A stretch of 64,000 nucleotides of DNA, taken from positions 50,398 to 114,397 of the forward strand of contig PMNE01000065.1 in the NCBI GenBank assembly GCA_003162635.1, read 5' to 3'. Numbering within the stretch: the first letter of the stretch is position 1; each line of letters starts with the position of its first letter. Positions 37,139 to 57,071 of this stretch are shown in pieces. Source of the stretch: Ignavibacteriota bacterium. Its GTDB lineage: Bacteria; Bacteroidota; Ignavibacteria; UBA10030; UBA6906. A program made the translations under genes and the position numbers. Under the pieces are notes generated by a model. It had not been told where the DNA came from, ran no database searches, and worked only from the letters and a program-made list of their open reading frames with translations.

Positions 37139-37183
37139 CGCAACTGTTCTTTCTATGCCGCAAAGGGGAGAGCATGACGGCGA

Positions 37184-37927: not shown

Positions 37928-39276
37928 CGGTCGACGAGTTCCCTTTGCGATGTCTTGGCAAGCTTGAAGACGGCCCGGAACATCTGCTCCACAAACCGGA
38001 CATCCAGACGGAGATCGCGCGCCACGCCAAGTTGCTTCTTCAGGACGGCCTGCTCCCGTCCCTTGTCGAGCACGCGCGACCCGCGTTTCTTCTTGAGCGC
38101 TCCGATCTGGCGGACAAGGCCCTGGCGTTCACTGAGCAGAAGGACGATGTTGTGATCGATCAGATCGATCGTATCGCGAAGGTCCTGCAGCTTGCTCTTT
38201 CTTGCAAGAAGACGCTGCCGCGTCATGTGATCGATGAGGGTCAATGCCACCATCCCCTCCGCAACCGGCACGACGCGGGGACATATGCAAGGATCGTGAC
38301 GCCCCCCGACCGTGATGACCGCCGGCGCCCCTTCCACGGTGACCGTCTCCTGTTCCTTGCGGATCGATGAGGGGGGTTTGACCGCAATCCGGACAATAAT
38401 GTCTTCGCCGTTGGAGATTCCTCCGGCGATGCCGCCTGCGTTATTCGTCCTTGTCCGGACCCGACCCGTGCCCTTTTCCACGTACATCGGATCGTTATTC
38501 CGGCTCCCCTTGAGGCGTGCGGCCGCAAACCCGTTGCCGACTTCGAACCCCTTGATCGCCCCGATGGACATCAGTGCCTTCGCCAGATCGGCCTCAAGCT
38601 TGTCGAACACCGGTTCTCCCAGACCCAGCGGCGGGTTCATCACGATCACCTCGACAACGCCGCCGACGGAATCTCCCTCCTTCTTCGCTTTCAAGACACG
38701 CCGCTCCATCACTTTCGCCGCGAGGGGGTCTGCGCACCGCAGGGGATTCTGTTCGATCACCGAGCGGTCGAACGTTTTCGCGCGGACTCCCGCTGCCTCC
38801 ATCGTGTGCCCGATGATCTCGATCCCCCGCCGGGCAAGGATGTTCTTCGCAACGGCACCCGCTGCAACCCGCGCAGCGGTTTCACGGCCGGAGGATCGCC
38901 CTCCCCCCCGATAGTCGCTGATGCCGTATTTGGCAAGGTAGGTGAAGCCCGCATGCCCGGGGCGGAATACGTCTTTGAGCTTCTCGTACGCCTTCGGCTG
39001 CTGGTCCTTGTTCCACACGATCATGCAAATGGGCGTCCCTGTGGTCCTGCCTTCGTACACACCGCTCAAAATCTCCACCTGGTCGGTTTCCTGGCGCGAC
39101 GTGGTCAGCTTGCTCTGTCCCGGCCGGCGCCGTTCAAGTTCATGCTGTATGAATGCCAGATCGATCGGGAGACCCGGGCGTACGCCGTCGATCACCGCGC
39201 CAATCGCCCGGCCATGGCTTTCCCCGAATGTGGTGATTCGAAAGTGATTGCCTATCGCATTGCCTGCCATGGTCAT
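37924..39276 (-). CDS. aroC: chorismate synthase fused to C-terminal AroQ-type chorismate mutase domain
   Basis: 450 aa. Residues ~1-355 are AroC (GESHGRAIGAVIDG...). C-terminal ~90 aa (LQDLRDTIDLIDHNIVLLLSERQGLVRQIGALKK...VLKKQLGVARDL...VEQMFRAVF) match the AroQ CM helix-bundle consensus. Confidence 0.8.
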   Translation of the reverse strand: MTMAGNAIGNHFRITTFGESHGRAIGAVIDGVRPGLPIDLAFIQHELERRRPGQSKLTTSRQETDQVEILSGVYEGRTTGTPICMIVWNKDQQPKAYEKLKDVFRPGHAGFTYLAKYGISDYRGGGRSSGRETAARVAAGAVAKNILARRGIEIIGHTMEAAGVRAKTFDRSVIEQNPLRCADPLAAKVMERRVLKAKKEGDSVGGVVEVIVMNPPLGLGEPVFDKLEADLAKALMSIGAIKGFEVGNGFAAARLKGSRNNDPMYVEKGTGRVRTRTNNAGGIAGGISNGEDIIVRIAVKPPSSIRKEQETVTVEGAPAVITVGGRHDPCICPRVVPVAEGMVALTLIDHMTRQRLLARKSKLQDLRDTIDLIDHNIVLLLSERQGLVRQIGALKKKRGSRVLDKGREQAVLKKQLGVARDLRLDVRFVEQMFRAVFKLAKTSQRELVDR

Positions 39277-39333
39277 TCACAAAAAGGATGTGGATCCGGT
39301 GTACCTCCGCCAGCGACTTCTGCTCCCGGGTTC

Positions 39334-40599
39334 TTACGCAGGGCGCAGGCGGTCGAACTCCGTCCAGAATTCCGGGAAGGACTTCCTGACGCATTCAGGG
39401 TTTTCGACCTCGACTCCCGGAACGCGGAGTCCGATGAGTGCGAAGCTCATAGCCAAACGGTGATCATCATGGACGTCAAGACGCGCGCCCCGGAGGGGGA
39501 CAGGGTTGACCTCCATTGTCTCCCCGTTCATCCGCACATCTGCTCCGAGCTTCCGCAGCTCCGCTGCCAGCCCCTCTCCCCTGTCCGACTCCTTGTAGCG
39601 GAGGTGAGCAACATGCAGGATGCGCGTCCCCCCCTCCGCAAAAAGTGCGACAGCAACGAGGGTCGGAACGACATCGGGCATCCCGTTCATATCCACTTCC
39701 GTTCCCCGCAACGCCCCTTCCCGCAGAACGGTGAGTCCACGATCGTGTGCGCGGATGTCGCAACCCATCGCACGGAGGACATCCGTGAATCGCGCGTCTC
39801 CCTGCAACGAATCTTCCCGCACACCGGGAAGGAAGACCCTCCCTCCGGCAATGGCGGCGGCTGCCATGGGATAGGATGCACCCGACGCATCCGGTTCCAC
39901 TTCATACTCCGCAGGGACGTACCGTTGCCCGCTCCTCACGGTGAAAGTGCCTGCTTCGCCTTTCTTTGCTTCGACACCGAACGCCCGCATCACTTCAGTG
40001 GTCAGGAGCACGTAGGGAGCAGACGCCAGGTCCTCCACGACCCTGAGAGTGGTGTCCCTGAGCGCGCACGGAGCGACAAGCATCAGCGAAGAGAGAAACT
40101 GCGAGCTGCGGGAACTCCGGACTTCCACACTCCCTCCGGCGAGCGCGCCTCCCCTGACATCGAACCTGCTTGTCCCCGGGTGCCAATCGATCTGAATTCC
40201 CTGCTGCTTCAGCGCTGACAGGAGATCGTCGTTGGGACGGGCGGCCATCCGTTCGTCCCCCTGCAGCGACGTCGTCCCTTCTGCCACTGCGGCCACCGAG
40301 AGGAGAAACCGGAGAGTCGTTCCGGCGTTCCCCACAGGAATTGGAAATTTCGGTGCGAAGAGCCGGCCCCCCGTCCCTCCGACAATCATGTCCGTGCCTG
40401 AGCGGCGAACCAGGACGCCGAGCTGGTTCAACCCGTTCGCCATGAACGCCGAGTCGTCGCTGTCCGACGCGTTCCGGATCGTCGACTCCCCCTGGGCAAG
40501 CGCAGCGCAGACAAGGGCCCGATTCGTCAAGCTCTTCGAGCCGGGGACACGGAAAACGCCGTCAACCGGGCCGCCTGTTCGGATCTCCCTGATCATCAA
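39334..40599 (-). CDS. aroA: 3-phosphoshikimate 1-carboxyvinyltransferase (EPSP synthase)
   Basis: 421 aa; canonical EPSPS motifs (LPGSKSLTNRAL...). Confidence 0.92.
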   Translation of the reverse strand: MMIREIRTGGPVDGVFRVPGSKSLTNRALVCAALAQGESTIRNASDSDDSAFMANGLNQLGVLVRRSGTDMIVGGTGGRLFAPKFPIPVGNAGTTLRFLLSVAAVAEGTTSLQGDERMAARPNDDLLSALKQQGIQIDWHPGTSRFDVRGGALAGGSVEVRSSRSSQFLSSLMLVAPCALRDTTLRVVEDLASAPYVLLTTEVMRAFGVEAKKGEAGTFTVRSGQRYVPAEYEVEPDASGASYPMAAAAIAGGRVFLPGVREDSLQGDARFTDVLRAMGCDIRAHDRGLTVLREGALRGTEVDMNGMPDVVPTLVAVALFAEGGTRILHVAHLRYKESDRGEGLAAELRKLGADVRMNGETMEVNPVPLRGARLDVHDDHRLAMSFALIGLRVPGVEVENPECVRKSFPEFWTEFDRLRPA

Positions 40600-40605
40600 A
40601 TGATC

Positions 40606-42060
40606 TCAGGATCGTTGCGAGAGTATTTCCTTCATGGCATCCATGTCCGGGGCAATACCCGCGTAGAGCCGGAACTGTCGTGCCGCCTGATTGATGTACA
40701 TTTCCGTCCCCTCGATGGTCTGCGCCCCGACTGCCGCCGCAGCCCGGAGAAGTTCCGTCACGGGAGGATTGTACACAACGTCAAAGACGAGCTTGCCCTG
40801 AAGCATTGAGGCAGGGGCCGGAGAACCGGCGATGTTCGGCGCCATGCCGATCGTCGTCGCATTAACAAGAATATCGAAAAAAATGGACCTAATTTCTTTC
40901 ATTTCAATATGTTGTATGTGCAAATCGAATGCAAGACGCCGCGCTCTTTTCTCCGTCCTGTTTGCGACGAGAACAACGGCTCCCCTCTTCCTTGCCTCGT
41001 ATGCAATCGCTCTTGCGGCTCCCCCAGCACCCAGGAGAAGGATGGTCTTCCCCGCCACGCTGGTCCGCTTTTCGATGGCATCGAGAGCTCCAGGAGCATC
41101 GGTATTTGTTCCCCACCATCCGCCACGTCGACGGAGGACGGTATTGACTGCTCCGATGGCCTTTGCTCTCCCATCGATCGCCTGCAAATATTTCATCACA
41201 CCCGCCTTATGGGGGATAGTAACGCTGAAACCCTTCAGAACGGGCGCCGCCCGTTTCATAAAGCGGCCGAGGTCGGCGACCACGAAACGGCAATAGATGG
41301 CGTTCTTGCCGGCACGGGAAAAGAGGGCATTGTGAACGAATATTCCCTTGCTCTGACCGACGGGATTGCCGATCACTCCGAATATTCTCGTCGTTCGCTT
41401 TCGCCGGTCCGCCCGATACACATCCTTGAGCATCCGGGCGCTCACCTGCCCCGGAGCCGCCGGTTTCCCTTCCTCCGAAGAAGCATATGTTGCCCATCCG
41501 CCGAACACCCGGTAGAGCACCCTGCTCGGTTCCCCTGCATCCCCCATGGCGATGGCAACGGCCTTCCGTCTCTCTTTCCCGGCCAATGTCAGGAATTCCC
41601 ACGCAAGGGCATTTTGCCACGCATCGGTCGCATGGAACGCGAATTTCAACACATCTGCATCGAACCTGCTCATGGTTCGGTACACTCCCCGCACGTTCAC
41701 CGTTGCCCCCTTCGGGAGATGACGCGAGAGGATGACGCCTGTTTCCCTCCTCCGGGCAAGGAATCCCGAAAGAAACCGCCTGGAAGTTCCCATCTCGATG
41801 TCGACGTAGTCCGCCCCGAGAAGCGAGGCAGATGACAGGATCTCGACCCTTGCCGCTTCTGAACCGCGGAAACCTCCCCCCTCCCATGCAGGTCTGCACG
41901 TCGCGACAATCGGCTTCGCGGTGGAGAGCATCAGGGTGGCAATCGCCGGCGCGCGGATGAGATCGAGACGGAATTCAAACGCGTCGGCAAATCGGTCGGA
42001 TGATGCCACCTGGGCCAGAGCATCGCTCATTGTCGGCCCCGTAATCGAAACGATGATCAC
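40606..42060 (-). CDS. aroDE: bifunctional 3-dehydroquinate dehydratase (type I) / shikimate dehydrogenase
   Basis: 484 aa. N-terminal type I DHQase (~230 aa) followed by AroE (GVIGNPVGQSKGIFVHN...LLLGAGGAARAIAYE). Confidence 0.85.
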   Translation of the reverse strand: MIIVSITGPTMSDALAQVASSDRFADAFEFRLDLIRAPAIATLMLSTAKPIVATCRPAWEGGGFRGSEAARVEILSSASLLGADYVDIEMGTSRRFLSGFLARRRETGVILSRHLPKGATVNVRGVYRTMSRFDADVLKFAFHATDAWQNALAWEFLTLAGKERRKAVAIAMGDAGEPSRVLYRVFGGWATYASSEEGKPAAPGQVSARMLKDVYRADRRKRTTRIFGVIGNPVGQSKGIFVHNALFSRAGKNAIYCRFVVADLGRFMKRAAPVLKGFSVTIPHKAGVMKYLQAIDGRAKAIGAVNTVLRRRGGWWGTNTDAPGALDAIEKRTSVAGKTILLLGAGGAARAIAYEARKRGAVVLVANRTEKRARRLAFDLHIQHIEMKEIRSIFFDILVNATTIGMAPNIAGSPAPASMLQGKLVFDVVYNPPVTELLRAAAAVGAQTIEGTEMYINQAARQFRLYAGIAPDMDAMKEILSQRS

Positions 42061-42171
42061 GACTCTCTCCCTTCATCTATAGTCACAGAGAGACCGGATT
42101 TCCGAACCCCAAAGGAGTTTCCGGCGTGAACAACGTTTCCCATCCAACCTGCCCCTGCATCCTGCGAGAGA

Positions 42172-43266
42172 TTATTCATACAAGAACATATCGATGCAAT
42201 TGATGAACTCCGGGGGGACACGAACACCGATGGCACACTCACCTATGGCACGGGGAAGAACGAACGCCGTCCCCCGTGCATCGCCCTTCTTATCCATTGC
42301 CAGCGAGGACCGGAGCGTTTTCCAGTCAATTTTCCGCGGTGCATTCGTCGGCAGGTGCATAAGGTGGAGCACGTTCTCCAGCCGTACGGCAGTCTCCGGC
42401 GCGGTCAAACCGAGGGCGACGGCCAGACGTGTCTCGGCCATCAGGCCGATCGCGACACCGAATCCATGCTTCAGCCGGTAGCCGGTCGAGGCTTCCAGCG
42501 CATGTCCAATGGTATGCCCCAGATTAAGGGATTTCCGGAGGCCGGATTCAAACTCATCGCGTGCGACGACTGCTCCCTTAAGTCCGACCGCCCTGGTGAT
42601 GAGCCGGGTGAGGAGGCGATGATTCGATCGAGTGATGCGCCCTCCCAGGAGTTCGAGCGATCGGAAGAATTCTGCATCGAGGGCTGCGGCGATCTTCACG
42701 ACTTCTGCAAGGCCGTTTGCAAACTCCACTGCCGGAAGCGTACGCAAAAACCGCGGGTCAATGAACACGGCAACGGGCTGATGAAACGCCCCCAGGAGAT
42801 TTTTCCCCGCCGGGTGGTCAATCCCGACTTTCCCTCCGACGCTGCTGTCGACCTGCGCGAGGAGCGACGTTGGAACCTGGACAAACCTGATTCCGCGCAG
42901 CACCGTCGAGGCGACATAGCCGGCGAGGTCTCCGATGACGCCGCCGCCCAGCCCAACAACAAGACTGTCCCGTTTCACGCGTCCACGGAGGAGGCGCGAC
43001 TGGAGGGAAAGGGCCATGGCGGAGGACTTCGACCGTTCCCCGGCCGGAACTGTCAGCAGAATCGCATCAGTGCCGAGGTGCAACAACCTTTTGAGCAGGA
43101 CCCTGCCATACCGGGGTGCGACGTGACGGTCGGTGACAATGAAAATGCGTCCGCCCCCCGCTATGTGCGCAAGACGGCGGGGAAGGGTCCCGAACAACCC
43201 GGAGCGGATCGTCACGGTGTATGACCTGTCCCGAAGGGGGGCAAGCCGTATCTGGATCTGCGGCAT
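42172..43266 (-). CDS. aroB: 3-dehydroquinate synthase
   Basis: 364 aa; AroB motifs (GGGVIGDLAGYVAST...). Confidence 0.9.
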   Translation of the reverse strand: MPQIQIRLAPLRDRSYTVTIRSGLFGTLPRRLAHIAGGGRIFIVTDRHVAPRYGRVLLKRLLHLGTDAILLTVPAGERSKSSAMALSLQSRLLRGRVKRDSLVVGLGGGVIGDLAGYVASTVLRGIRFVQVPTSLLAQVDSSVGGKVGIDHPAGKNLLGAFHQPVAVFIDPRFLRTLPAVEFANGLAEVVKIAAALDAEFFRSLELLGGRITRSNHRLLTRLITRAVGLKGAVVARDEFESGLRKSLNLGHTIGHALEASTGYRLKHGFGVAIGLMAETRLAVALGLTAPETAVRLENVLHLMHLPTNAPRKIDWKTLRSSLAMDKKGDARGTAFVLPRAIGECAIGVRVPPEFINCIDMFLYE

Positions 43267-43476
43267 AGGAAGACTTCATCGATGACGGAACAAACAAAAA
43301 ACCTTCACCTTTCACCGGTGGAGGTTACAAAATGTATATGCAAATCAAGACAAAAAGTCAAGGCGTGGAGAACCACCTCCTTCCCTCCCTCCCAGGTCTG
43401 CGGCAGGCGAAAGGAGCACTTGGAACTCCCGCCGCCGTTTCGTATCTTTCATGGCAGATCATCCATCCGCCGCGTC

Positions 43477-45576: not shown

Positions 45577-45606
45577 GATCCCGCCCCGGGTCGCCCGCCG
45601 GCGATT

Positions 45607-46707
45607 TCAGACCGCAACCTCCGCGGTGGGGATCACGCGGAGAATCTCATACAGCGTCGTCCGTTGCGCGGCAGAGAACCCCGCATCGTGAATCAGCCTG
45701 ACGCATTCCTCGGTGCTGGTCGTATTCACGAAATTCGCCGCGGCATGGACATTCTCTTCTTGCAGCGTCCCGCCGAAATCATCCGCACCGAAATGCAGCG
45801 CCATCTGGCCCGTCTTCTTCCCCTCCGAGAACCATGACGCCTGGATGTGAGGGAGATTGTCCAGGTAGAGCCTGGAAAAGGCGATCATCTGCAGGTAGCG
45901 CGTCGGCGTCGCATAGTGAGGGATAATCTTCTCCAGCGGAGTGTTCCCCGGTTTGAAGCTCCACGGGATGAAGGCGGTAAATCCGTTTCCCTCATCCTGG
46001 ATTTGCCTGACCAATTCCAGATGTTCAACGACATCCTCTTCATTCTCGAGATGCCCGTACATCATTGTGGCAGTAGTCTTGTATCCGATCCGATGTGCCT
46101 GCTTCATCACCCCGGCCCAATCAGCGCTCGTTCCCTTCAGGCGGCTGATCTTCTTCTTCACGCGATCGGAGAGTATTTCCGCCCCCCCTCCCGGCAATGA
46201 GCGCAAACCGGCATCCCATAACTCACGCAGGACCTGTTCGGTCGACATGCCGGCGCCATGCGCCATCCCGATGATTTCCGACGTCGAGAAGAAGTGCGGG
46301 AACACCTCCGGCACTTCTTTCCGGGTCCGCCGGACCAGCTCTTTATAATAGTCAAAGGGAAGGGAAGGATGCACGCCCCCCTGCAGCAGGACTGTTGTCA
46401 CCCCATGCCCGGCTGATTCCTTGAATTTGCCGATCATATGATCAACAGTGTATGTGTACTCCCCTTCCTCCCCGGGATGGCGGTAGAAGGCACAGAAGAT
46501 GCAGTCGATCGTGCAGACGTTGGAGTAGTTCGGGTTGGTGTCAACAACAAAAGTGACCTGTTGCCCGGGATTTTTCCGGAAGCGGATCTCATTGGCTGCC
46601 TCGGCCAGATCGAGCAGCTCGGCGTGGCGATAGAGTTCGATCCCCTCCTCGCGGGTGATCCTCTCTCCCTCGCGGGCCTTCGCAAGAATATCCTGAACGT
46701 ACATCAT
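45607..46707 (-). CDS. radical SAM enzyme, MqnC/MqnE family
   Basis: 366 aa; CxxxCxFC cluster motif (CTIDCIFCAF), CofH/MqnC/MqnE architecture. Confidence 0.75.
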   Translation of the reverse strand: MMYVQDILAKAREGERITREEGIELYRHAELLDLAEAANEIRFRKNPGQQVTFVVDTNPNYSNVCTIDCIFCAFYRHPGEEGEYTYTVDHMIGKFKESAGHGVTTVLLQGGVHPSLPFDYYKELVRRTRKEVPEVFPHFFSTSEIIGMAHGAGMSTEQVLRELWDAGLRSLPGGGAEILSDRVKKKISRLKGTSADWAGVMKQAHRIGYKTTATMMYGHLENEEDVVEHLELVRQIQDEGNGFTAFIPWSFKPGNTPLEKIIPHYATPTRYLQMIAFSRLYLDNLPHIQASWFSEGKKTGQMALHFGADDFGGTLQEENVHAAANFVNTTSTEECVRLIHDAGFSAAQRTTLYEILRVIPTAEVAV

Positions 46708-48581
46708 CCCTCCCGACTGTCTCCGTTTCCCACGCCGCTGGCGGCCAATTCCGCCTGGAAGCGCCTGAAAACACGGATGGCCTCCTGTTCCCGCTCGCCC
46801 AGCTTGTAATTGAAGCCCTCAAGATACTCCTGCGTCTCCGCCTCTGTCAAACCGATCCTTCTGCCATGGGTTCCGGCAATCGAGGCAAAATCGTCACCGC
46901 ACGCATCCAGCGATCTCTCCAGAAGCCCGGCCAGATCACGCCGCGACTCTTCCGGAAGCGCTTTCCGGATCGCCCACACAGCGAAGACAAACGGAAGTTT
47001 CTGCCACTCATACCACTCGCTGGCGAGGTCGAAGACGAGTTCGAATCCATCCAGCCCCGCCTTGTTGTGCCGGAGGGCTTCATCTCCGATCAACAGCACG
47101 GCATCGAACCGGGAACAATCGTTCACCCCGGCATGGAGCCGTTCAAAGGTCGCATGAACATGGTACTTCTTTTCCAGAAGAACGCGGAGAAGCTGGACCG
47201 ACGTTGCCGTATCGTCGGTGATGCCGATCGTTTTCCCTTCAAGATCACGCCATCCTTCCTTCGAGAAGAGCATCACGCTTTTCACCTGGTCGCGCGTTGC
47301 GATGCACCACCCGAGGGGTTCGAGCACATCCTCCAGCCGGAGAAAGTCCATCAGGGAAAACAATCCAGCGTCGAGTTCTCCCTGCGCTGCCAGGACCCCC
47401 ATCCGCCGCGGGACGACGGGAAGAAGCCGGAACTGCTGCTTCTCCAGATGCGCGTGAAAGGGGACGGAATTCAAATACGGGATCTTCCCGATGACGTTGT
47501 CAGCGTAGACATGGATCGGGTTATAATAGACATCGCGCTCGACGGGAATCTTCCCCGCATCCCGGATCATCTGGATGAGCTTTTCCTTTGCGATGGTCGT
47601 TGGGCTGGTTGCGCCCGCATCGTGGGCGATCTTCTCACCCCCCACCGTTCCGTCGATGTCATCCGCGCCGAAATTCAGGGCCACCGAAGTCACTTCCTCG
47701 GTCAGCATCACCCAATATGCTTTGATGTGCGGGAAGTTATCGAGCATGAGACGGGACACCGCGATCGTCTTGAGGTCGTCGATTGCCGACGTGAACATGT
47801 TTCTCGGTTTGATCCCCGTCTCCCCGGGCTGGAACGCAAGCGGGATGAATGTGAGGAATCCCCCCGTTTCATCCTGCGCGTCGCGGAGTTTGATCATGTG
47901 AATGAGCCGTTCTTCCAGCGTTTCCACGTGACCATAGAGCATGGTGCTGTTCGTCGGGATCCCAAGCCGGTGCGCGGTGCTATGGACATCGAACCACCCT
48001 TTGGCGCCGATCTTCTGGTTGAAGAGAAGTTTCCGGACCCGCTCCGAAAATATCTCCGCCCCGCCACCCGGCATGGTTTTCAGGCCGGCCGCCTGGAGTT
48101 GCCGGAGTACCTCTTCGATGGACATCCGGAATTTCTTGTGGAAGAAGTCGATCTCCACAGCCGTAAAGGCCTTGACATCGGCTTCGGGGAGCCGGTGGTG
48201 GATGGTGCGGACGAGGTCGAGGTATCGTTCCCATGGCCAATCGGGAGGCATGCCGCCGGTAATGTGGACTTCCCGGATCTCCGGCGTCAGCTTTGCCAGC
48301 ACATCCTCCGTGGTCATCTCGTAGGCGCGTTCATCACCCTTCTTTGCGGCAAAGTCGCAGAACTTGCAGGAGAGGACACAGATATTGGTGTGTTCGATCT
48401 TCTGATTCAGCACAAAGTAGACCGCATCACCGCTCTTGGCCTGTTGCACCTCGTTCGCCATCCGTCCGAGCGCGATGACGTCCTGGGTCGTGTACAGGGC
48501 CAGGCCGTCCGCAAGCGTCAGGCGTTGCCCCTGCTGTATTTTGTCCCAGATGGGGGCGAGTTTTCTGTCACGTATGTTCAT
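46704..48581 (-). CDS. fusion: radical SAM MqnC/MqnE-family domain + C-terminal MqnA/MqnD-family domain
   Basis: 625 aa. N-terminal ~370 aa with CVLSCKFC radical SAM motif and MqnC/E-like body; C-terminal ~250 aa PBP-like domain resembling MqnA/D. ATGA overlap with downstream gene. Confidence 0.7.
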   Translation of the reverse strand: MNIRDRKLAPIWDKIQQGQRLTLADGLALYTTQDVIALGRMANEVQQAKSGDAVYFVLNQKIEHTNICVLSCKFCDFAAKKGDERAYEMTTEDVLAKLTPEIREVHITGGMPPDWPWERYLDLVRTIHHRLPEADVKAFTAVEIDFFHKKFRMSIEEVLRQLQAAGLKTMPGGGAEIFSERVRKLLFNQKIGAKGWFDVHSTAHRLGIPTNSTMLYGHVETLEERLIHMIKLRDAQDETGGFLTFIPLAFQPGETGIKPRNMFTSAIDDLKTIAVSRLMLDNFPHIKAYWVMLTEEVTSVALNFGADDIDGTVGGEKIAHDAGATSPTTIAKEKLIQMIRDAGKIPVERDVYYNPIHVYADNVIGKIPYLNSVPFHAHLEKQQFRLLPVVPRRMGVLAAQGELDAGLFSLMDFLRLEDVLEPLGWCIATRDQVKSVMLFSKEGWRDLEGKTIGITDDTATSVQLLRVLLEKKYHVHATFERLHAGVNDCSRFDAVLLIGDEALRHNKAGLDGFELVFDLASEWYEWQKLPFVFAVWAIRKALPEESRRDLAGLLERSLDACGDDFASIAGTHGRRIGLTEAETQEYLEGFNYKLGEREQEAIRVFRRFQAELAASGVGNGDSREG

Positions 48582-48611
48582 TCTTCACCATGGTCGTGGC
48601 GCATCATCGTT

Positions 48612-50381
48612 CTAACGCCAATACACGTCCCAGCGTTCCTCAACTTTCCTGGAAACCTCCGCCTTCATCTCCAGCGGCTTCGGGTAGCCCGGCTTCCACG
48701 TTGCATCGATCCCCATCACGCCATTATACACCGGACAGGCGCCGATGAGTTTCTGCTCCGTGAATATGACGTCACGCTCGCAATCAAACCGTGTAAACAT
48801 CCCCCAGATGGTGTTTTCCCGGTCCCGGAGATCGACATCCTCGCTGACCGTCGCAATGAGCGGGACATTATGGAAGGCCGGATGCTTGACCAGCTTCTTC
48901 AGCACGGGCATCCCCACGCCGGAGACGCTCACCAGAAGAAGAGATCCCTCCACAAATTCCGTCTCCCGTATCCGGCGATCCAGGTCTTTCGCTGCGGGAA
49001 ACCGCCTCTGAGAAAGTTGTGCCGGCTTGCGCCTCTCCTCTCCCGGTTTCCGGGTCGCGTCGAGGATCATCTTGCTCCCGAGATTCATCGTATAGCTCGT
49101 GAAGTCGAGCGTATCCATCGGAACATGCGGGAGCAGGACAAAATCCTCGTGCGGGTCGAAATTCTCCCGCACTTCCCTCATGACCGCACCAAAGTCCTTG
49201 ACGTCGGTTCCTTCGCTGACAAGGACGATACATTTTGTCAGGGCAAGCTGAGACAAGCCAAGGAGGCCGAGGGCGGTCTTGAGCGCTTCCTTGCCGTACC
49301 GCTGGTCGACGGCGACAACGAGGAGATTGTGGAAGCCGGCTTCATAGTATGCCCAGAGATCGGCGATCTCAGGGTGGATGAGCCGGGCAAGAGGGCCGAG
49401 AATCTTCTGCGTCGCATCGCCGAGGAATTTGTCTTCCATCGGGGGGATTCCGACGACGGTCGCGGGATAGACCGGATCATGCCGATGGGTCACTGCGCTG
49501 ATATGGAAGACCGGAAACTTCGCAGCAGGGGAGTAGTGGCCGAAGTGATCGCCGAACGGTCCCTCCCTTCGCCTCTCACCGGGAGGCACGACCCCTTCGA
49601 GGATGAATTCCGCATTCGCGGGAACCGGGATGGAAATCGAGACCCCCCGGACAAATTCCGTTCGACGCCCCCGGAGGAATCCGGCAAACATCGCCTCGTC
49701 GATATTCTCGGGAAGCGCGGCAATGGTCGCCATCAGGAGCGCGGGATCGGTGCCGAGAGCCACCGCCAGTTCCAACGGGCGGCCGAGTTTTTCGGCCTGA
49801 TAGTAGTGAAACCCGCCCCCTTTCTGGATCTGCCAGTGCATGCCCGTGGTTTTCTTGTCAAACACCTGCATCCGGTACATCCCCATGTTCCGTTTCCCAT
49901 TCCGGGGATCGTACGTCACGACCTGCGGCAGCGTGAGAAACCGCCCCCCATCCCCCGGCCAGCAAGTGAGAACAGGAAGGGCGTCGAGATCGGGCTCTTC
50001 GTGAATCTCCTGCGAGAGGCCGGATGACACGTTCCTGGGGGGAGCATGGAGAAGCCTCCTGACCAGTGCCCGGTGCTTCCACACCATGGAGGGACGCGGA
50101 GGGAACAGATCGCCGAAGAAGTCGATCAACTCCTCCCCCAATTCCTCCGGGTGTTTCTGCAGGGCGAGTTCGCACCGCCGGTCGCTTGCAAGCGCATTGA
50201 TGACAATAGGATAGGATGAACCGCGGACCTTCTCGAAAAGAATGGCCGGCTTCCCCTCCCGAATCCCGCGCGAGGCGATCTCGGTGATCTCCAGGTATGG
50301 ATCCACCTCGATCGAAACCCTGTGCAACTCGCCAACGGATTCAAGATAACGGGCAAAATCGCCGTATGATCTGAATGTCAT
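48612..50381 (-). CDS. UbiD-family decarboxylase (menaquinone/ubiquinone ring decarboxylase)
   Basis: ORF from 50702; start MTFRSYGDF at 50381 (ATGA overlap with UbiX-like stop). UbiD motifs throughout. Confidence 0.82.
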   Translation of the reverse strand: MTFRSYGDFARYLESVGELHRVSIEVDPYLEITEIASRGIREGKPAILFEKVRGSSYPIVINALASDRRCELALQKHPEELGEELIDFFGDLFPPRPSMVWKHRALVRRLLHAPPRNVSSGLSQEIHEEPDLDALPVLTCWPGDGGRFLTLPQVVTYDPRNGKRNMGMYRMQVFDKKTTGMHWQIQKGGGFHYYQAEKLGRPLELAVALGTDPALLMATIAALPENIDEAMFAGFLRGRRTEFVRGVSISIPVPANAEFILEGVVPPGERRREGPFGDHFGHYSPAAKFPVFHISAVTHRHDPVYPATVVGIPPMEDKFLGDATQKILGPLARLIHPEIADLWAYYEAGFHNLLVVAVDQRYGKEALKTALGLLGLSQLALTKCIVLVSEGTDVKDFGAVMREVRENFDPHEDFVLLPHVPMDTLDFTSYTMNLGSKMILDATRKPGEERRKPAQLSQRRFPAAKDLDRRIRETEFVEGSLLLVSVSGVGMPVLKKLVKHPAFHNVPLIATVSEDVDLRDRENTIWGMFTRFDCERDVIFTEQKLIGACPVYNGVMGIDATWKPGYPKPLEMKAEVSRKVEERWDVYWR

Positions 50382-50929
50382 TCTAACTCCTCCCGGCGCC
50401 ACCCCCGCGAATTCGTGACGCCAAGTTGAGCGAGGACCTTGTCGGTGAAGGCGCCGACGTACTCGCCGACCGTCTCGGGAACGAAATAGAGCGGGGAGGA
50501 AATCGGCATGATCACTGCGCCGTACCCCGACAGGCGGGCGCATTGCTCCAGCGTAAGGGTGGAAAGGGGAGTCTCGCGGATGCAGAGGATCAGTGGAAAC
50601 CGCTCCTTCAGACAGACCTGGGCGGTGCGCGTGATCAGCGTGTCGCCGATGCCGGAAGCGATCTTCCCGACGGTCGATGTCGATGCCGGCAGGATGACGC
50701 ACGCATCAAGGACGTTTGACCCTGAGGCCATGGGGGCCGTCAGATCATCGTCGGAATAGACACGGTCGACGAACGGAAGGAGATCCTTCTCCCCCATCTT
50801 CAGTTCATCCCGCAGCAGTACTTTCCCCCACGCGCTCGTGATGAGAAATTTCTTCGGCGGACATTTCTTCAGGAAATCCAGCGCATAGACGGCGCCGGAC
50901 GATCCCGTGATACCGACGACGATTTTCAC
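50378..50929 (-). CDS. ubiX: UbiX-family flavin prenyltransferase
   Basis: ORF from 50956; likely GTG start VKIVVGITGSSGA at 50929 overlapping UbiA-like stop. Confidence 0.85.
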   Translation of the reverse strand: MKIVVGITGSSGAVYALDFLKKCPPKKFLITSAWGKVLLRDELKMGEKDLLPFVDRVYSDDDLTAPMASGSNVLDACVILPASTSTVGKIASGIGDTLITRTAQVCLKERFPLILCIRETPLSTLTLEQCARLSGYGAVIMPISSPLYFVPETVGEYVGAFTDKVLAQLGVTNSRGWRREELE

Positions 50930-51759
50930 CCATAGACTCCGATAAGGACCATGCACAGGACGACAAATCCCGCCACGGAATTGATCCTGAAAAATGCCAG
51001 CTCGACATCCTCCGCCTTGCGTTGTTCAAGATAGAGGAGGCATCCCGTCAGCAGGAGGAGCGGAAGCGCCAGCAGGGAAAAGACTGAGGTGAAGAACAAG
51101 GCAACCAGAACGCCGAACGCAACGAGATGAAAGAGGGCGGAAAACCGAAGGGCCGTTCTCCTGCCAAAAAGTGCCGGGAAGGAATAGAGTGATTCCTCCC
51201 TGTCGAAGTTCTCGTCCAACGTCGAATAGATGATATCGAATCCCGCCACCCAAAAGAGGGTGAAGACCGACAGGAGCGCCGGCGGGAGCAGATTCTCGAA
51301 GGAGGGAGAGACCGCGAACCACCCGCCCAGCGGACCCATCGCCAGCCCGAGACCGACTCCGAAATGCGCAAGCGGCGTGTACCGTTTCATCGTCGGATAC
51401 ACGACGAAGATGATCAGCGGGATGGGTGAAAGCATGAAACAGAAATCGGAGATCAGCCACGCCGACCCGCCGTACAGGGCGAGCCCGGTCACCGTCACCC
51501 AGGCGGCTTCCCAGAGTGTCATGCGGCCGCTGGGGAGATCGCGCATTGCCGTACGGGGGTTCCGCCCATCGATTTGCCGGTCGATGATCCTGTTCAGTGC
51601 AAACGCGACCGTCCGCGCCCCTGTGGCCGCGGCAAGCACAAGGAGAAGGATACGCAGCGGGGGAGCGCCGTTCTTTGATCCGAGGAGAACGCCGCTGTAG
51701 ATCAACGGGAGGGAAAAGAGGGTGTGTTCGATCCTGACAAACGAGAAGAACTTTTTCAT
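50926..51759 (-). CDS. UbiA-family polyprenyltransferase (MenA/MqnP-like)
   Basis: ORF from 51840; start MKKFFSFVRIEH at 51759, 8 nt after guaA stop; UbiA motifs (NRIIDRQID, DIIYSTLD). Confidence 0.8.
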   Translation of the reverse strand: MKKFFSFVRIEHTLFSLPLIYSGVLLGSKNGAPPLRILLLVLAAATGARTVAFALNRIIDRQIDGRNPRTAMRDLPSGRMTLWEAAWVTVTGLALYGGSAWLISDFCFMLSPIPLIIFVVYPTMKRYTPLAHFGVGLGLAMGPLGGWFAVSPSFENLLPPALLSVFTLFWVAGFDIIYSTLDENFDREESLYSFPALFGRRTALRFSALFHLVAFGVLVALFFTSVFSLLALPLLLLTGCLLYLEQRKAEDVELAFFRINSVAGFVVLCMVLIGVYG

Positions 51760-51766
51760 TCCGGCC

Positions 51767-53320
51767 TCACTCCCATTCGATCGTTGCGGGAGGCTTGGAG
51801 CTGATATCATAGACCACACGGTTGATGCCGCGGACCTCATTGGTGATGCGCGAAGAGATGCGCGCCGCCACTTCGTGCGGCATGCGGAACCAATCGGCGG
51901 TCATGCCATCCACGCTCGTCACCGCCCGGACTGCGGCCGTGTATTCATACGTTCTTCCGTCCCCCATGACGCCGACCGATTTCACCGGCAGCAGCACGAT
52001 GAAACCCTGCCAGATGTCACGGTAGAGCCCGGCACGTTTCACCTCGTCGACGAAGATCGCGTCCGCCTCCCGGAGCAGCGCGAGGCGCTCGCGTGTAATG
52101 TCGCCGAGAACGCGCACACCCAGCCCGGGACCCGGGAATGGATGGCGCCAGATGAGGTCGTCCGGGAGTCCCAACGCTGCTCCCACGGCGCGAACTTCGT
52201 CTTTGAAGAGTTCCCGGAACGGCTCGATGAGCGTGAAGTTCATCTTTTCCGGAAGTCCGCCGACATTGTGGTGGGATTTGATGGTCACCGACGGGCCGCG
52301 GAAGGAGGTCGACTCGATGACATCGGGGTACAACGTCCCCTGGGCGAGGAAATCCACTGTGCCGATCTTCTTCGCTTCGCGCTCAAAGACCTCGATGAAA
52401 AGCCGCCCGATGATCTTCCGTTTCTCCTCGGGATCGCTGACTCCCGCCAACGCAGAAAGGAAGAGGTCGGTCGCATCCACATAGTCCAATCCCATGCTGA
52501 ACGTGTCGCGGAAAGTCTTGAGGACGCTCTCCGACTCGTTCTTCCGCATCAGTCCGTTGTTGATGTGAAAGCACATCAGGCGGTCACCGATCGCTTTGTG
52601 CAGGAGGAGGGCAAGAACGGAGGAATCGACACCCCCGCTGAGGGCACAGATCACTTTCCGCTCCCCGACCGTGGAGCGGATCGCGGCAACGGATGATTCA
52701 ATGAACGATGTGGGATTCCATCCGCCGGAGCATCCGCAGATACGATAGAGAAAATTCCGCAGGACCTCCTTTCCCTTCGGCGTGTGGACAACCTCGGGAT
52801 GGAATTGCACGCCATAGATCCGCTTTGCGTCGTTCCTGATCGCACAAATGGGGGCATTGGAGGTATGTGCGATCGGGACAAATCCCCGGGGGCAGCCCGT
52901 AAGGTGGTCGCCATGGCTCATCCACACATCAAGCCCGTCAGCCCCGTCGGGCTCAATCCCCGCGAAAAGGTCTTTTGCGTCATCGATCCGGAGATGTGCC
53001 GGGCCGTATTCCCGCCGGGCGGCCTTATCAATCTCACCGCCCAACTGGTAGGCCATAAGCTGAAGGCCGTAGCAAATTCCCAGGATGGGGATGCCAAGAT
53101 TGAAGATCTCGGGCGACGATATCGGGGCGCCGTCCTCGTATGCGCTGTAGGGGCTCCCGGAGAGGATCAGGCCCTTCGGTCTGAGTGCAACAATCTGGTC
53201 AAGGGGGATGGAAAATGGATGCAGTTCCGAGTAGACGCCGAGTTCGCGCACTCTCCGCGCGATGAGCTGGGAATACTGCGAACCGTAGTCAAGAACAAGA
53301 ACAGTTTCGGCGTGGGTCAT
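51767..53320 (-). CDS. guaA: GMP synthase (glutamine-hydrolysing)
   Basis: 517 aa; GATase-1 and ATP-PPase SGGVDSSV motifs. Confidence 0.93.
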
Positions 53321-53430
53321 CGGTCGGGGGAGGAGTTCAATAATAATAGTAATATATGCAATTTCGCCCTCTTGTCCAACATGGCGGGCGGGGGGGCTTC
53401 CGGACCTCTCCCCCCGGGCCCCTTCCCTGA

Positions 53431-54795
53431 TTATTTCCGCCGTCTGCTCTTCTTCTTCGGCGATTTCTTCTTCGGCATCTTCGTCAGGAAATCCCCAAGG
53501 ATCGTCCCGAGATCGGGTGTCGTGATTTCCTCAAGAGCGTATTGCACGCGGACCGACGGTTTGTTGATCTTCAGAATCCTCCGCAAATCGATCGGCGTAC
53601 CAATGATCACCGCCTCGCACGGGACCGCATTGATCGTCGCTTCCAGATCCTTCACCTGCTCGTCGCCATATCCCATGGCAGGGAGCACTGCGCCGGTCCG
53701 CGGGTATTTCTCGAATGTCGCGGCAATGGACTTCACGGCAAAAGGACGCGGGTCAACGATCTCGCGGGCGCCGAACATTTTCGCCGCGATCGTTCCCGCG
53801 CCGTATTTCATCTCCCCGTGGGTCAGTGTCGGTCCATCCTCAACAACGAGAACGCTCTTCCCCCGAATGATCGAGGCATCCTCCACGCTGATCGCTGAAT
53901 TCGCCTGGACGATCTGTGCATGGGGGTTGATCGTCCTGACATTCCTGATCACCGTCGCCACATTTTCCTTTTCCGCGGAATCGACCTTGTTCACCACAAT
54001 GACATCGGCAAGACGCACATTGGTCTCTCCGGGATAATAGGTCATCTCGTGTCCCGGCCTGTGGGGATCGACCACCGTGATTGTCAGGTCCGGTTGGTAG
54101 AAGGACATGTCATTGTTTCCGCCGTCCCACACAATGACGTCCGCTTCCTTCTCTGCCTGACGGAGGATATCCTGGTAATCGACGCCGGCATAGATGATCG
54201 TCCCGTTGACGATGTGCGGCTCGTATTCTTCCATCTCCTCCACAGTGCACTTGTTGGCAAGCAGGTCGGCCAGCGATCCGTAGCGCTGCATTCTCTGCTT
54301 CACAAGATCCCCGTAGGGCATCGGATGGCGGACGGCGACGACGCGCATCCCCTTGCTCCGGAGGAACTCGCAGACTTTGCGCGACGTCTGGCTCTTCCCT
54401 GACCCCGTGCGAACTGCGACGACAGCAACGACGGGGACCTTGGACTTCAGCATGGTGTGGTCGCCTCCCAGAAGCCGGAAGTCGGCGCCGAGAGACAGAA
54501 CGAGCGACGCCTTGTCCATGACGTACTGGTGGGAAACGTCGGAATACGAGAAGATCACCTCATCGACTTTCAAGTCGGCGATCAACCGTGGAAGTTCCGA
54601 CTCGGGGCGGATGGGTATGCCTTTCGGGTAGAGCTTCCCTGCAAGCTTCGCCGGATATCGCCTCCCATCGATGTTCGGGATCTGCGTTGCAGTAAAGGCA
54701 ACCACCTGGAAACGTGCATTGGCGCGAAAGAGCGTATTGAAGTTATGGAAGTCTCTTCCAGCCGCTCCCATGAGGATGATTCTTGTTTTCGGCAT
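53431..54795 (-). CDS. P-loop protein of the cyclic 2,3-diphosphoglycerate synthetase (CpgS)/COG2403 family (tentative)
   Basis: 454 aa; N-terminal Rossmann-like region, P-loop VRTGSGKSQ, overall length and layout as archaeal cDPG synthetase homologues; Lys-rich C-terminal tail. Family assignment from memory, needs search. Confidence 0.5.
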
Positions 54796-54911
54796 TGGGT
54801 GTTCTCCTTGTCGGGTACTGTCGGTGCACGACCGCCCCGATTCATTCGCGCATCCAATGGATGCGATTGATGGATTTGCACGGAAACCCTGCAGGGTGTC
54901 CCCGGCGGCGT

Positions 54912-55856
54912 CTATGCGTCATTCAGAATTCTCGTTCCACCCCTCCCTTCGACCGCATCGAGCAGGGTTCCCGCGTTCGTGATCACGGCATGCTTTCCTT
55001 CGCGTTCCAGAAACACGAGCGCAGCCCTGATCTTCGGCCCCATGCTCCCTTCCGGAAACTGTCCTTCGGCAAGATACCTCCGGCATTCTGCCGCCGTCAT
55101 GGTGGCGAGCTTCCGCTGGGTGGGCTTCCTGTAGTCGAGACAGACCATTTCTTCGTCGGTCTCAATGGCAAAAACGTCGGCATGCAGCTGCGATGCCAGA
55201 ATGGCGGACGTGTGATCCTTGTCGATGACCGCCTCGACTCCTTTTTCGATGTCGTGGTCATTAAACACCGGGACACCACCGCCTCCCGCCGCAATGACGA
55301 CCAGCCCCCGGTCGACGCAGGCCCGGATGGCCTCAAGCTCGACGATCCCCTTCGGCTCCGGAGAAGCAACCACACGGCGGTACCCCCGCGAGAGATCCTC
55401 CACCATATGCCAATCGAACAGGTCGCGGTAGCGATACGCTTCATCCCGGGTGTAGAAGGGTCCCACGGGTTTGGTGGGAACGCGGAAAGCGGGGTCATCC
55501 GGATCGACGAGGACCTGCGTCACCAGGGAAACAACGGGGGTGTTGAGTCCCTCCGCCTGCATCGCCTGCCACATGGCATACTGGAGCACGTAGCCGATCT
55601 CTCCCTGCGTTGCGGCAACGCAGCAGTCGATGGGCATCCGATACGCATACGCCGCGGCAAGTTCCGATCTCACAAGCTGGGCGCCGACCTGGGGGCCGTT
55701 CCCATGCGTCAGCACCAAACGGTAGCCGGCCTTGATCAGTTTGACGGCGACGTTCGCCGTCTCCGCGGCATTTTGAAACTGCTCCTGGGCTGTCCCCTTC
55801 TGCCCCGCGCGGATCAACGCATTTCCCCCCACCGCCACGAGCACAAGTTTTGGCAT
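54912..55856 (-). CDS. arcC: carbamate kinase
   Basis: ORF from TTG 55889; ATG at 55856 gives MPKLVLVAVGGNAL, typical CK N-terminus. Confidence 0.88.
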   Translation of the reverse strand: MPKLVLVAVGGNALIRAGQKGTAQEQFQNAAETANVAVKLIKAGYRLVLTHGNGPQVGAQLVRSELAAAYAYRMPIDCCVAATQGEIGYVLQYAMWQAMQAEGLNTPVVSLVTQVLVDPDDPAFRVPTKPVGPFYTRDEAYRYRDLFDWHMVEDLSRGYRRVVASPEPKGIVELEAIRACVDRGLVVIAAGGGGVPVFNDHDIEKGVEAVIDKDHTSAILASQLHADVFAIETDEEMVCLDYRKPTQRKLATMTAAECRRYLAEGQFPEGSMGPKIRAALVFLEREGKHAVITNAGTLLDAVEGRGGTRILNDA

Positions 55857-55885
55857 CCCTCCCCCTTCGTCCTGCGACAATTTGC

Positions 55886-56842
55886 TCAACCCTTCAGCAA
55901 TCCAACCATGATCGCCTTCTGGGCGTGGAGCCGGTTCTCCGCCTCCTGGAAGACGACGGAGTTCTTTGAATCCATAATTTCATCCGTCACTTCCCACCCT
56001 CTGTGTGCGGGAAGGCAGTGCATGAACAGCGCATCGCCGTGGGCATGGGAGAAGAGCCCGCGATTCACCTGGTACGAGTTGAACTCCTCGCGCCGCTGCT
56101 CCGCCTCCGCCTCCTGTCCCATGCTGGCCCATGTGTCGGTGTACACAACGTCCGCATTGTGCACCGCCTCCACGGGGCTGGAGGTCCAGACGATCGTTCC
56201 ACCGTTCTCGCGGGCGAGCGCCACGGCGCGGTCCATCACATTCTGATCGGGTTTGTATTTTTCCGGCGTTCCGACGAACAGCGTTGCGCCGAGTTTCCCG
56301 GCCATCAGGAGGAGCGAATGTGCAACGTTATTGCCATCGCCGACATAGGCTATTTTCGCCTTTGCGAGGTTTTTGCGGCATTCGATGATGGTCATGAAGT
56401 CGGCCATGGCCTGGCAGGGATGCTCCAGGTCCGTCAGGCCATTGATGACCGGAATGGCGGCATGCGCGGCCAGCGAGGTGCAGATATCGTGGCCGAAGGT
56501 CCGGATCATGATCCCGTCGACCATGCGCTCCAGATTCTTCGCAACATCATAGACCGACTCCCGCTTGCCGAGGTTGATGTCGGCCGGCGTAAGGAGCAGG
56601 GCATCGCCGCCGAGCTGTTTGATCCCCACGGTGAAGGTCGTGCGGGTGCGCAGCGACGGTTTCTCGAAAATCAGAGCCATCATCGCCCCTTCAAGCGCTG
56701 CGCGGTATTTCCGCGGATGGGCCTTCATGTCGCGCGCGAGAACAAGCACCGATCTGATCTCCGCGGGAGAGAAATCATCCACCGAGAGAAAGTCCCTCCC
56801 CTTCAACCCCTTTTTCCGCGGCTTGACGGTCTTTTTTGTCAC
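55886..56842 (-). CDS. argF: ornithine carbamoyltransferase
   Basis: ORF from 57010; GTG 56842 (GAAGGAG 7 nt upstream) gives VTKKTVKPRKKGLKGRDFLSV; STRTR, HPCQ, HCLP motifs. Confidence 0.88.
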   Translation of the reverse strand: MTKKTVKPRKKGLKGRDFLSVDDFSPAEIRSVLVLARDMKAHPRKYRAALEGAMMALIFEKPSLRTRTTFTVGIKQLGGDALLLTPADINLGKRESVYDVAKNLERMVDGIMIRTFGHDICTSLAAHAAIPVINGLTDLEHPCQAMADFMTIIECRKNLAKAKIAYVGDGNNVAHSLLLMAGKLGATLFVGTPEKYKPDQNVMDRAVALARENGGTIVWTSSPVEAVHNADVVYTDTWASMGQEAEAEQRREEFNSYQVNRGLFSHAHGDALFMHCLPAHRGWEVTDEIMDSKNSVVFQEAENRLHAQKAIMVGLLKG

Positions 56843-57071
56843 TGCGTCGCTCCTTCTGGATTCTGTTGCACCAAACGTCGTATATTGACAATGTACGATT
56901 CCGCCCCGGCCGTTGCAACGGAAGGGGAGCGGGTGGATCCGGTCCCTATGATCGGTCAAATAGTATGCCGAAGGTGACCTGAGTTTAAATTCCATTTTCA
57001 ACGATTTCATCGCCGGGAGACATGGGTCGTTTCCTATCTGTAGGAAGAAGAGAACAACGCGAGGGAAAGCA

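Follow-up and report, generated by a model that had tools for sequence, protein, structure and literature searches.

The closest described relative of the gene cluster treated here is the 'arginine synthetase pathway' of Thermococcus kodakarensis, in which ArcE, the arginine synthetase encoded by TK2200, acts together with ornithine carbamoyltransferase (OTC, ArcB) and carbamate kinase (CK, ArcC) for a yield of 2 ATP per arginine (Michimori, Yokooji and Atomi, PNAS 2024; PMC11032458). The TK2200 protein (TK2200p) catalyses Arg + ADP + Pi <-> citrulline + NH3 + ATP, for which the equilibrium constant (Keq) is about 10 at 80 °C; its specificity is for L-arginine and free ammonia, and it prefers ADP, its activity with GDP being 8.4% of that with ADP (PMC11032458). 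According to the same study, TK2200 homologues were formerly annotated as hypothetical proteins or putative GTPases and lie sometimes beside arcB and arcC, arcE complements a missing arcA (the arginine deiminase, or ADI, gene) in arcC-bearing genomes, arcE occurs widely among bacteria (Bacteroidota, Acidobacteria, Chloroflexi and Caldithrix are among those named), and the true cyclic 2,3-diphosphoglycerate (cDPG) synthase forms a low-similarity outgroup of ArcE (PMC11032458). Here we compare with this pathway three genes, for an OTC, a CK and a P-loop protein of 454 amino acids (aa), that lie together in a 64-kb stretch ('the window') of contig PMNE01000065.1 of an Ignavibacteriota bacterium. 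Nearly all of the window was covered by gene calls, by Pfam tables (of identical metagenomic contigs) and by our own Pfam scans. Given the observed gene identities, homology, fold, shared motifs and conserved linkage described below, we consider it highly probable that the trio encodes an arginine synthetase pathway, ArcE-ArcB-ArcC, with the 454-aa protein as an ArcE-type enzyme and with a mainly catabolic role.

Gene identities, protein family and linkage

The OTC and CK are securely identified. The OTC scores 386 bits against TIGR00658 (cutoff 281) and 415 bits against PRK00779, matches both OTCace_N and OTCace in Pfam, and carries the OTC-type motifs SLRTR (SxRTR), HPCQ (HPxQ), DTWASMG (DxxxSMG) and HCLP; the model for putrescine carbamoyltransferase gives it 296 bits, below the cutoff of 500. 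The CK scores 364.5 bits against TIGR00746 arcC (cutoff 358.25) and matches the Pfam family AA_kinase. The best solved relatives are 1pvv/1a1s for the OTC (E = 5e-98) and 1e19 for the CK (E = 2.3e-82, residues 1-311 aligned to 1-313), which we take to be the OTC and CK of Pyrococcus furiosus. In the supplement of a 2026 paper the P. furiosus genes PF0594 and PF0676 are the arcB and arcC of the pathway (PMC13260591).

The third protein has a Walker A motif (RTGSGKS, residues 129-135), a WDGGNND block (223-229) and an NKVD motif (269-272), and its AlphaFold model is confident, with a predicted local distance difference test score (pLDDT) of 92.7. Its C-terminal 16 residues form a Lys/Arg-rich tail with a pLDDT of about 55-62; the basic tails of close relatives are shorter. 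The family is large and compact: judged by shared words, the 454-aa protein has at least 8000 homologues, and there are 3735 matches among clusters represented at 50% identity. The top 120 homologues are 73-80% identical to it. For comparison of gene context we used the loci of the best 80 relatives ('related loci'), drawn from more than 578 species genomes that carry one. These 80 are 62-73% identical to the 454-aa protein and are spread over Bacteroidota, Ignavibacteria, Chloroflexota, Acidobacteriota, Zixibacteria, Marinimicrobia, Calditrichaeota, Fidelibacterota, Verrucomicrobiota and Actinomycetes, with Bathyarchaeota and Thermoplasmatota metagenome-assembled genomes (MAGs) as well. In the source databases the family is labelled 'predicted GTPase', 'GTPase' or 'cyclic 2,3-diphosphoglycerate synthase', which matches the description of TK2200 homologues by Michimori et al. 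(2024). A literature search on COG2403, or on 'predicted GTPase' together with carbamate kinase, found nothing.

The link to the archaeal enzyme runs through the Thermoproteota. With a family member from that phylum as query, named proteins of Hyperthermus butylicus, Pyrodictium occultum and Ignisphaera aggregans were recovered; the first two are each 46% identical to the 454-aa protein with a single gap, H. butylicus P0296 over 441 residues (E = 1e-146) and P. occultum P0332 over 433 (E = 1e-136). Hyperthermus and Pyrodictium are both named as arcE carriers (PMC11032458). In an alignment of 362 sequences, the bacterial and Thermoproteota clades have every signature block in common (Walker A, RHPMxYG, EExEEYEP, WDGGNND, DxxRPG, EDxPTxTHG, DPRP and PxxGY), which argues for one active site and one function; by homology, the bacterial protein would have the same activity as TK2200p. 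A search with the 110-residue fragment of the cDPG synthetase structure 9sxb returned nothing, and cluster look-ups for 20 family representatives gave no Thermococcales names.

Gene context points in the same direction. A CK gene lies within 3 kb and on the same strand in 31 of the 80 related loci, with a gap of at most 157 nucleotides (nt) in 29 (median 44 nt), and an OTC gene lies within 3 kb, again on the same strand, in 14. The CK-linked loci belong to Bacteroidota, Ignavibacteria, Zixibacteria, Marinimicrobia, Calditrichaeota, Acidobacteriota and Fidelibacterota. Gene arrangement is not fixed: arcE-arcC in 19 loci, arcE-arcC-arcB in eight, and arcE-arcB-arcC, arcE-arcB and the window's own order, arcB-arcC-arcE, in two each. 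The linkage of arcE with CK is far beyond chance, and that it has been kept through rearrangement across phyla indicates functional coupling. This bears out the initial annotation of the window where it tied an 'unrecognised' function of a cDPG synthetase (CpgS)-like enzyme to CK and OTC and pointed to conservation of a COG2403-like gene with arcC/argF as the matter to check; it was also right to see an archaeal precedent for such a module, which exists in the ArcE, ArcB and ArcC of T. kodakarensis (PMC11032458).

A further pair comes from a haloarchaeal plasmid, that of Salinirubellus sp. (NZ_CP147842.1, 107732-110046), where arcC divergently adjoins an arcE homologue that is 56.6% identical to the window protein and is labelled 'cyclic 2,3-diphosphoglycerate synthase' by RefSeq/PGAP, with four universal stress protein genes around the pair. 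The H. butylicus arcE homologue has neither arcB nor arcC adjacent and adds no evidence from context.

No arginine deiminase (Amidinotransf/ADI) and no carAB appears among the gene calls and Pfam matches of the window, nor was arcD found there; the sole CPSase_L_D2 match in the window is the biotin carboxylase AccC, adjoining the biotin carboxyl carrier protein. In the roughly 0.8 kb past the high-coordinate end of the window there is likewise no ADI gene, and no ADI-like neighbour recurs among the 80 related loci. The cluster is, as first described, no standard ADI operon, and the absence of arcA from the window fits the reported complementarity of arcA and arcE.

Several other features of the related loci were observed. 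The conservation of the ArcE-like protein across phyla contrasts with that of its partners, CK being 38-53% identical, save in two syntenic Bacteroidota loci (73-76%), and OTC 38-77%; the high value for the ArcE-like protein could come from strong constraint or from recent horizontal spread. The arrangement aldehyde dehydrogenase-ArcE-CK-SucC-SucD, confirmed with Pfam, recurs in eight loci of Marinimicrobia, Zixibacteria and others (L014, L018, L026, L029, L035, L039, L083 and L086). Speculatively, it may represent a longer module for the fermentation of arginine and ornithine, with substrate-level phosphorylation at three steps; the arrangement would suit an additional, energy-yielding breakdown of carbon from ornithine. 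In 11 other loci (L032, L048, L049, L057, L061, L062, L067, L072, L074, L082 and L084) the arginyl-tRNA synthetase gene, ArgS, lies directly upstream of the ArcE homologue, with Obg downstream in seven of the 11 and no CK or OTC nearby. All of these are labelled Anaerolineae or other Chloroflexota except L072, a Lentimicrobiaceae MAG (Bacteroidota), and the adjacency may be a further arginine-related linkage or mere lineage synteny.

Proposed pathway and rival explanations

In the proposed pathway, the ArcE-type protein would convert L-arginine, a nucleoside diphosphate (NDP) and Pi to L-citrulline, NH3 and the corresponding triphosphate (NTP), saving energy that arginine deiminase wastes; OTC would then phosphorolyse citrulline to ornithine and carbamoyl phosphate, and CK would pass the phosphate of the latter to ADP, leaving carbamate to decay to CO2 and NH3. 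The net reaction would be Arg + 2 ADP + 2 Pi + H2O -> Orn + CO2 + 2 NH3 + 2 ATP. Because the P-loop domains of CTP synthase and dethiobiotin synthetase (BioD) are structural neighbours of the protein, the chemistry may, by analogy, involve an O-phosphoryl-isourea (phospho-citrulline) intermediate at the ureido or guanidino carbon, where NH3 and Pi would be exchanged; the two ArcE papers (PMC11032458, PMC13260591) do not discuss reaction chemistry. The catabolic direction is suggested by the CK of the operon and, speculatively, by the recurrent neighbours elsewhere.

Were the database label right, the 454-aa protein would be a cDPG synthetase (cDPGS) making a thermo- or osmoprotective solute, and its adjacency to CK and OTC would be incidental. 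NCBI/PGAP does name family members cDPG synthase, and the nearest solved structure is a cDPGS: a single-sequence phmmer search against the PDB returned only 9sxb (E = 7.7e-6, 110 residues), and the family profile matched 9sxb at E = 2.7e-20 and the Methanothermus fervidus enzyme (8ORK/8ORU), which only the profile detected, along parts of the sequence at E = 7.7e-15. The structural alignment with cDPGS, however, has an identity of only 12-14%, and what can be aligned in sequence is confined to the P-loop region and residues 212-395, HMMER leaving unaligned the stretch of the profile (about 156-211) that holds the family's most conserved blocks, RHPMPYG and EExEEYEP. In the cDPGS P-loop, GTGKRIGKT, residues K145 and R146 bind 2,3-diphosphoglycerate and stabilise the transition state (De Rose et al.); the profile alignment places AVRTGSGKS opposite this loop, with T130 and G131 in place of the two residues. 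Since K145 and R146 are replaced and the two conserved blocks have no aligned counterpart, the 454-aa protein lacks the defining features of cDPGS, and it is best described, on alignment grounds, as a genuine yet distant relative. Moreover, cDPG is reported only from hyperthermophilic methanogens, whereas members of the 454-aa family occur in many bacterial phyla that are mesophilic, the linkage to CK, seen in several phyla, is no accident, and no 2-phosphoglycerate kinase was seen among the neighbours in the window and the related loci. We therefore give the cDPG reading hardly any credence. Very little more can be said for a G3E metallochaperone GTPase of the CobW/HypB/UreG kind, or for an NTPase that matures or regulates CK and OTC or uses carbamoyl phosphate. 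Pfam cobW does match above its cutoff (31.7 bits against 20.7), there are weak NCBIfam matches to HypB and ZigA, and NKVD is a G4 motif. The cobW match, however, covers only the last third of the domain (residues 231-297, profile positions 111-180 of 180), the scores against NCBIfam fall well short of the cutoffs (HypB TIGR00073, 22.9 against 121.2; ZigA, 21.1 against 600), and the protein has extra N- and C-terminal domains that it has in common with cDPGS and ArcE. OTC and CK, for their part, require no metal-centre assembly, and the characterised member of the family is a metabolic enzyme, so that explanations of this kind appear very improbable.

A more substantial question is whether the same enzyme runs in reverse, taking ornithine to arginine without aspartate and replacing or supplementing ArgG/ArgH. 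Carbamoyl phosphate would then come from CK and/or a carbamoyl-phosphate synthetase (CPS), OTC would make citrulline, and ArcE would use free NH3 and NTP to aminate it. ArcE can work in both directions, growth on citrulline plus NH4+ is possible with TK2200, and an anabolic role has been suggested for some bacteria in which CPS, ArcB and ArcE occur without ArgG/H (PMC11032458); in addition, ArgS stands directly upstream of the arcE homologue in the 11 loci, mostly of Anaerolineae, mentioned above, and the window's OTC scores best on the PRK00779/TIGR00658 type of about 305 aa and not on models of about 335 aa. Against this, a CK in the operon points to recovery of ATP from carbamoyl phosphate, the CK of T. 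kodakarensis is unable to supply carbamoyl phosphate for growth (PMC13260591), and the Ks of TK2200p for NH3 is millimolar. We judge the anabolic direction unlikely as the main role, while in the present bacterium, as an ammonia-exposed anaerobe, the fully reversible three-enzyme operon might possibly also be reversed and lead from ornithine to arginine by a 2-NTP route independent of aspartate. A two-component carbamoyl-phosphate synthetase of CK and the 454-aa protein, the latter forming carbamate or carboxyphosphate, was considered too, and was dropped in favour of the characterised function of the family and also because CK supplies no carbamoyl phosphate in T. kodakarensis.

Several points weigh against a catabolic ArcE-ArcB-ArcC pathway and should be set beside the evidence for it. 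The homology of the 454-aa protein to TK2200 is indirect, appearing only via the named archaeal intermediates, and in the literature searched there was no assayed bacterial member of the family. About half of the related loci (47 of 80) are without CK or OTC nearby, although 12 of the 47 are truncated close to the arcE homologue. For arcA, argG/H and carAB, the gene content considered is that of the window. The operon sits amid biosynthetic genes (pheA, guaA, aro and mqn) and its OTC is of the short type that is usual in biosynthesis, which makes an anabolic role possible. Finally, the invariant NK[VI]D of the bacterial clade contrasts with the ADP preference of TK2200p, so that the nucleotide, and conceivably the kinetics, may differ.

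This last point deserves attention. NKVD at residues 269-272 is the G4 motif by which P-loop GTPases are specific for guanine. All 120 close homologues have NK[VI]D, and 65 of the 80 cross-phylum loci have NK[VIM]D, whereas the Thermoproteota have [TN]K[VA]S at the same position, the haloarchaeal homologue NKEN and a Thermoplasmatota MAG NKEE. In the profile alignment D272 falls on E305 of cDPGS, which is among the residues reported to contact adenosine, ribose or the alpha-phosphate. With this motif in bacteria and an ADP preference in TK2200p, the bacterial clade may couple to GDP/GTP; that it is a guanine-nucleotide-coupled variant (Arg + GDP + Pi <-> Cit + NH3 + GTP) we put forward tentatively, as a possibility that we rate somewhat below an even chance.

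Taken together, these results support the interpretation given in the initial annotation in part. Its impression of a cDPG synthetase/COG2403-like protein stands as far as remote kinship goes and fails as to function, and the family to which it is better referred is the characterised ArcE family, insofar as that family explains the protein. Use of carbamoyl phosphate by the CpgS-like protein is not to be expected, the family having been assigned as arginine synthetase ArcE in 2024 (PMC11032458); the formation of carbamoyl phosphate by CK, in the manner attributed to hyperthermophiles, does not agree with the genetics of T. kodakarensis published in 2026, which contradict it for that species (PMC13260591); and a horizontally acquired archaeal-type module is hard to reconcile with a family that is no rare archaeal import and is widespread and highly conserved in bacteria. 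The finding is most likely explained by known biology, as an uncharacterised and mis-annotated bacterial member of the ArcE pathway and no new kind of system, and the discovery itself has been published already, in 2024 (PMC11032458) and 2026 (PMC13260591).

Locus layout and neighbouring genes

The coordinates of the operon and of other features of the window are collected in Table 1. The open reading frames (ORFs) for OTC, CK and the 454-aa protein, their positions and their strand agree with those first given and are confirmed by the ORF calls and by the OTC and CK profile scores; so are the 116-nt gap before the third gene and the palindrome in it, while the gap between the OTC stop and CK is 29 nt and not the 30 nt first stated. 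The OTC has a Shine-Dalgarno sequence, AGAAGGAG, 8 nt upstream of its GTG start. The 318-aa form of the protein is also the call of the Joint Genome Institute, and a longer reading of 374 aa, from an ATG at 57010, adds 56 residues without homology.

Table 1. Features of the window, with positions numbered from its first nucleotide
Feature	Position	Strand	Remarks
arcB/argF, ornithine carbamoyltransferase (OTC)	56842..55886	minus	318 aa, GTG start
arcC, carbamate kinase (CK)	55856..54912	minus	314 aa, ATG start
arcE-like, putative arginine synthetase (ATP/NTP-forming arginine deiminase)	54795..53431	minus	454 aa, ATG start
CK-arcE intergenic spacer	54796..54911	minus	116 nt; GGAG Shine-Dalgarno before arcE ATG
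Palindrome CGCATCCATTGGATGCG	54849..54865	none	17 nt; unique in window; lineage-specific
OTC-pheA divergent intergenic region	56843..57071	none	presumed arcB-arcC-arcE promoter region, by position only
Part of arcE-like gene for the Lys/Arg-rich tail	53431-53478	minus	C-terminal 16 residues
sigma-70-like site TGGACA-16-TATATT	53351-53378	minus	arcE-guaA spacer, just upstream of guaA
Antisense ORF	54783-56246	plus	487 aa
Antisense ORF	56003-56977	plus	324 aa
Antisense ORF	52784-54037	plus	417 aa
UbiA-UbiX-UbiD and menaquinone genes	~45600-51840	minus	directly downstream of guaA
Shikimate/aromatic amino acid cluster	~37000-43300	minus	two fusion proteins

The palindrome, CGCATCCA-T-TGGATGCG, is missing from both syntenic relatives, L008 and L012, whose CK-arcE spacers are not alignable with that of the window, and the gap folds as RNA no better than shuffled sequences (z = -0.76). 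The spacer with its palindrome matches no Rfam family and has no T-tract. A role as operator, riboswitch or terminator was rejected on these grounds; as the palindrome is not conserved in the two relatives and gives no fold signal, there is no evidence that it is functional, and it is lineage-specific and possibly without function.

A sigma-70 scan of the OTC-pheA region found no promoter-like site. The sole sigma-70-like match of the region is the one just upstream of guaA, and it suggests that guaA is transcribed apart from the arc operon. A search for a hairpin resembling a terminator behind arcE found none, and the spacer 3' of the gene folds worse than shuffles (z = +1.6).

The three long antisense ORFs that overlap CK, OTC and ArcE are artefacts of the 60% GC content and no genes. 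Antisense ORFs within arcE also form pseudo-families among the related loci (42 and 15 loci).

Next to the operon, guaA lies 110 nt beyond arcE on the same strand, and pheA and gcvP are divergent and upstream. The window's other genes serve housekeeping, the shikimate pathway (one cluster), menaquinone synthesis of the futalosine type and glycine cleavage, and include UbiA/UbiX/UbiD, AccB/AccC and elongation factor P. The UbiA prenyltransferase, UbiX and UbiD genes are followed by the menaquinone genes, one of which encodes a protein of 625 aa where a radical-SAM/CofH_C enzyme is fused to a VitK2_biosynth (MqnA-like) domain. The fusions of the shikimate cluster join chorismate synthase to chorismate mutase (450 aa) and dehydroquinase I to shikimate dehydrogenase (484 aa).

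Comparison with described systems

Thousands of bacterial and archaeal proteins carry the label 'cDPG synthase' or 'GTPase', and some metagenome studies take them as thermoprotectant genes. Recognition of ArcE alters the metabolic reconstruction of Bacteroidota, Ignavibacteria, Anaerolineae, Acidobacteriota, Marinimicrobia and Zixibacteria, which are widespread anaerobic and soil lineages; if their proteins are ArcE, these lineages would gain a 2-ATP fermentation of arginine and possibly an ammonia-dependent synthesis of it. For tests of the enzyme beyond the hyperthermophilic archaea, the compact OTC-CK-ArcE operon offers a clear-cut bacterial case. What interest remains beyond the published work lies in an assay of a bacterial ArcE, in the possible guanine coupling and in the physiological direction.

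Among the systems that share parts of this locus, cDPGS (M. fervidus 8ORK/8ORU; 9SXB) differs from the 454-aa protein in genomic context and in phylogenetic range as well as in the residues discussed above. The G3E GTPases (CobW/HypB/UreG/MeaB) match it in part, and it is without the metallochaperone architecture. The synthetase domain of CTP synthase and dethiobiotin synthetase, both of the SIMIBI class, have no sequence-family tie to it beyond the P-loop (BioD reached E = 0.009 in the profile search); with their other substrates and domain architecture, the analogy to them would be one of mechanism only.

With the ADI pathway, arcABC, the proposed window pathway has in common the downstream steps of OTC and CK, the overall conversion of arginine to ornithine, CO2 and 2 NH3, and substrate-level phosphorylation. 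The first step of the ADI pathway is carried out by the hydrolytic ArcA, of the guanidino-modifying fold, whereas in the window pathway it would fall to a P-loop, NTP-forming enzyme, so that 2 ATP and not 1 would be gained per arginine and all steps would be reversible.

The closest likeness is to the ArcE system of T. kodakarensis: the 454-aa protein is placed in the family by 46% full-length identity to proteins of arcE-carrier genera and by the shared motifs, it bears the same labels (GTPase, cDPG synthase) and has the same fold neighbours (LpxK and P-loop NTPases), and its partners are likewise OTC and CK, with no ADI. Points of difference are its invariant NK[VI]D, where the Thermoproteota homologues have [TN]K[VA]S, and its basic C-terminal tail. 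Unlike T. kodakarensis, the window's host is a mesophilic bacterium, known from a MAG of 60% GC from peat- or soil-type metagenomes, the closest syntenic relatives of which are labelled Bacteroidota; and while TK2200, TK0871 and TK2158 are dispersed in the archaeon, the three genes of the window form one tight operon.

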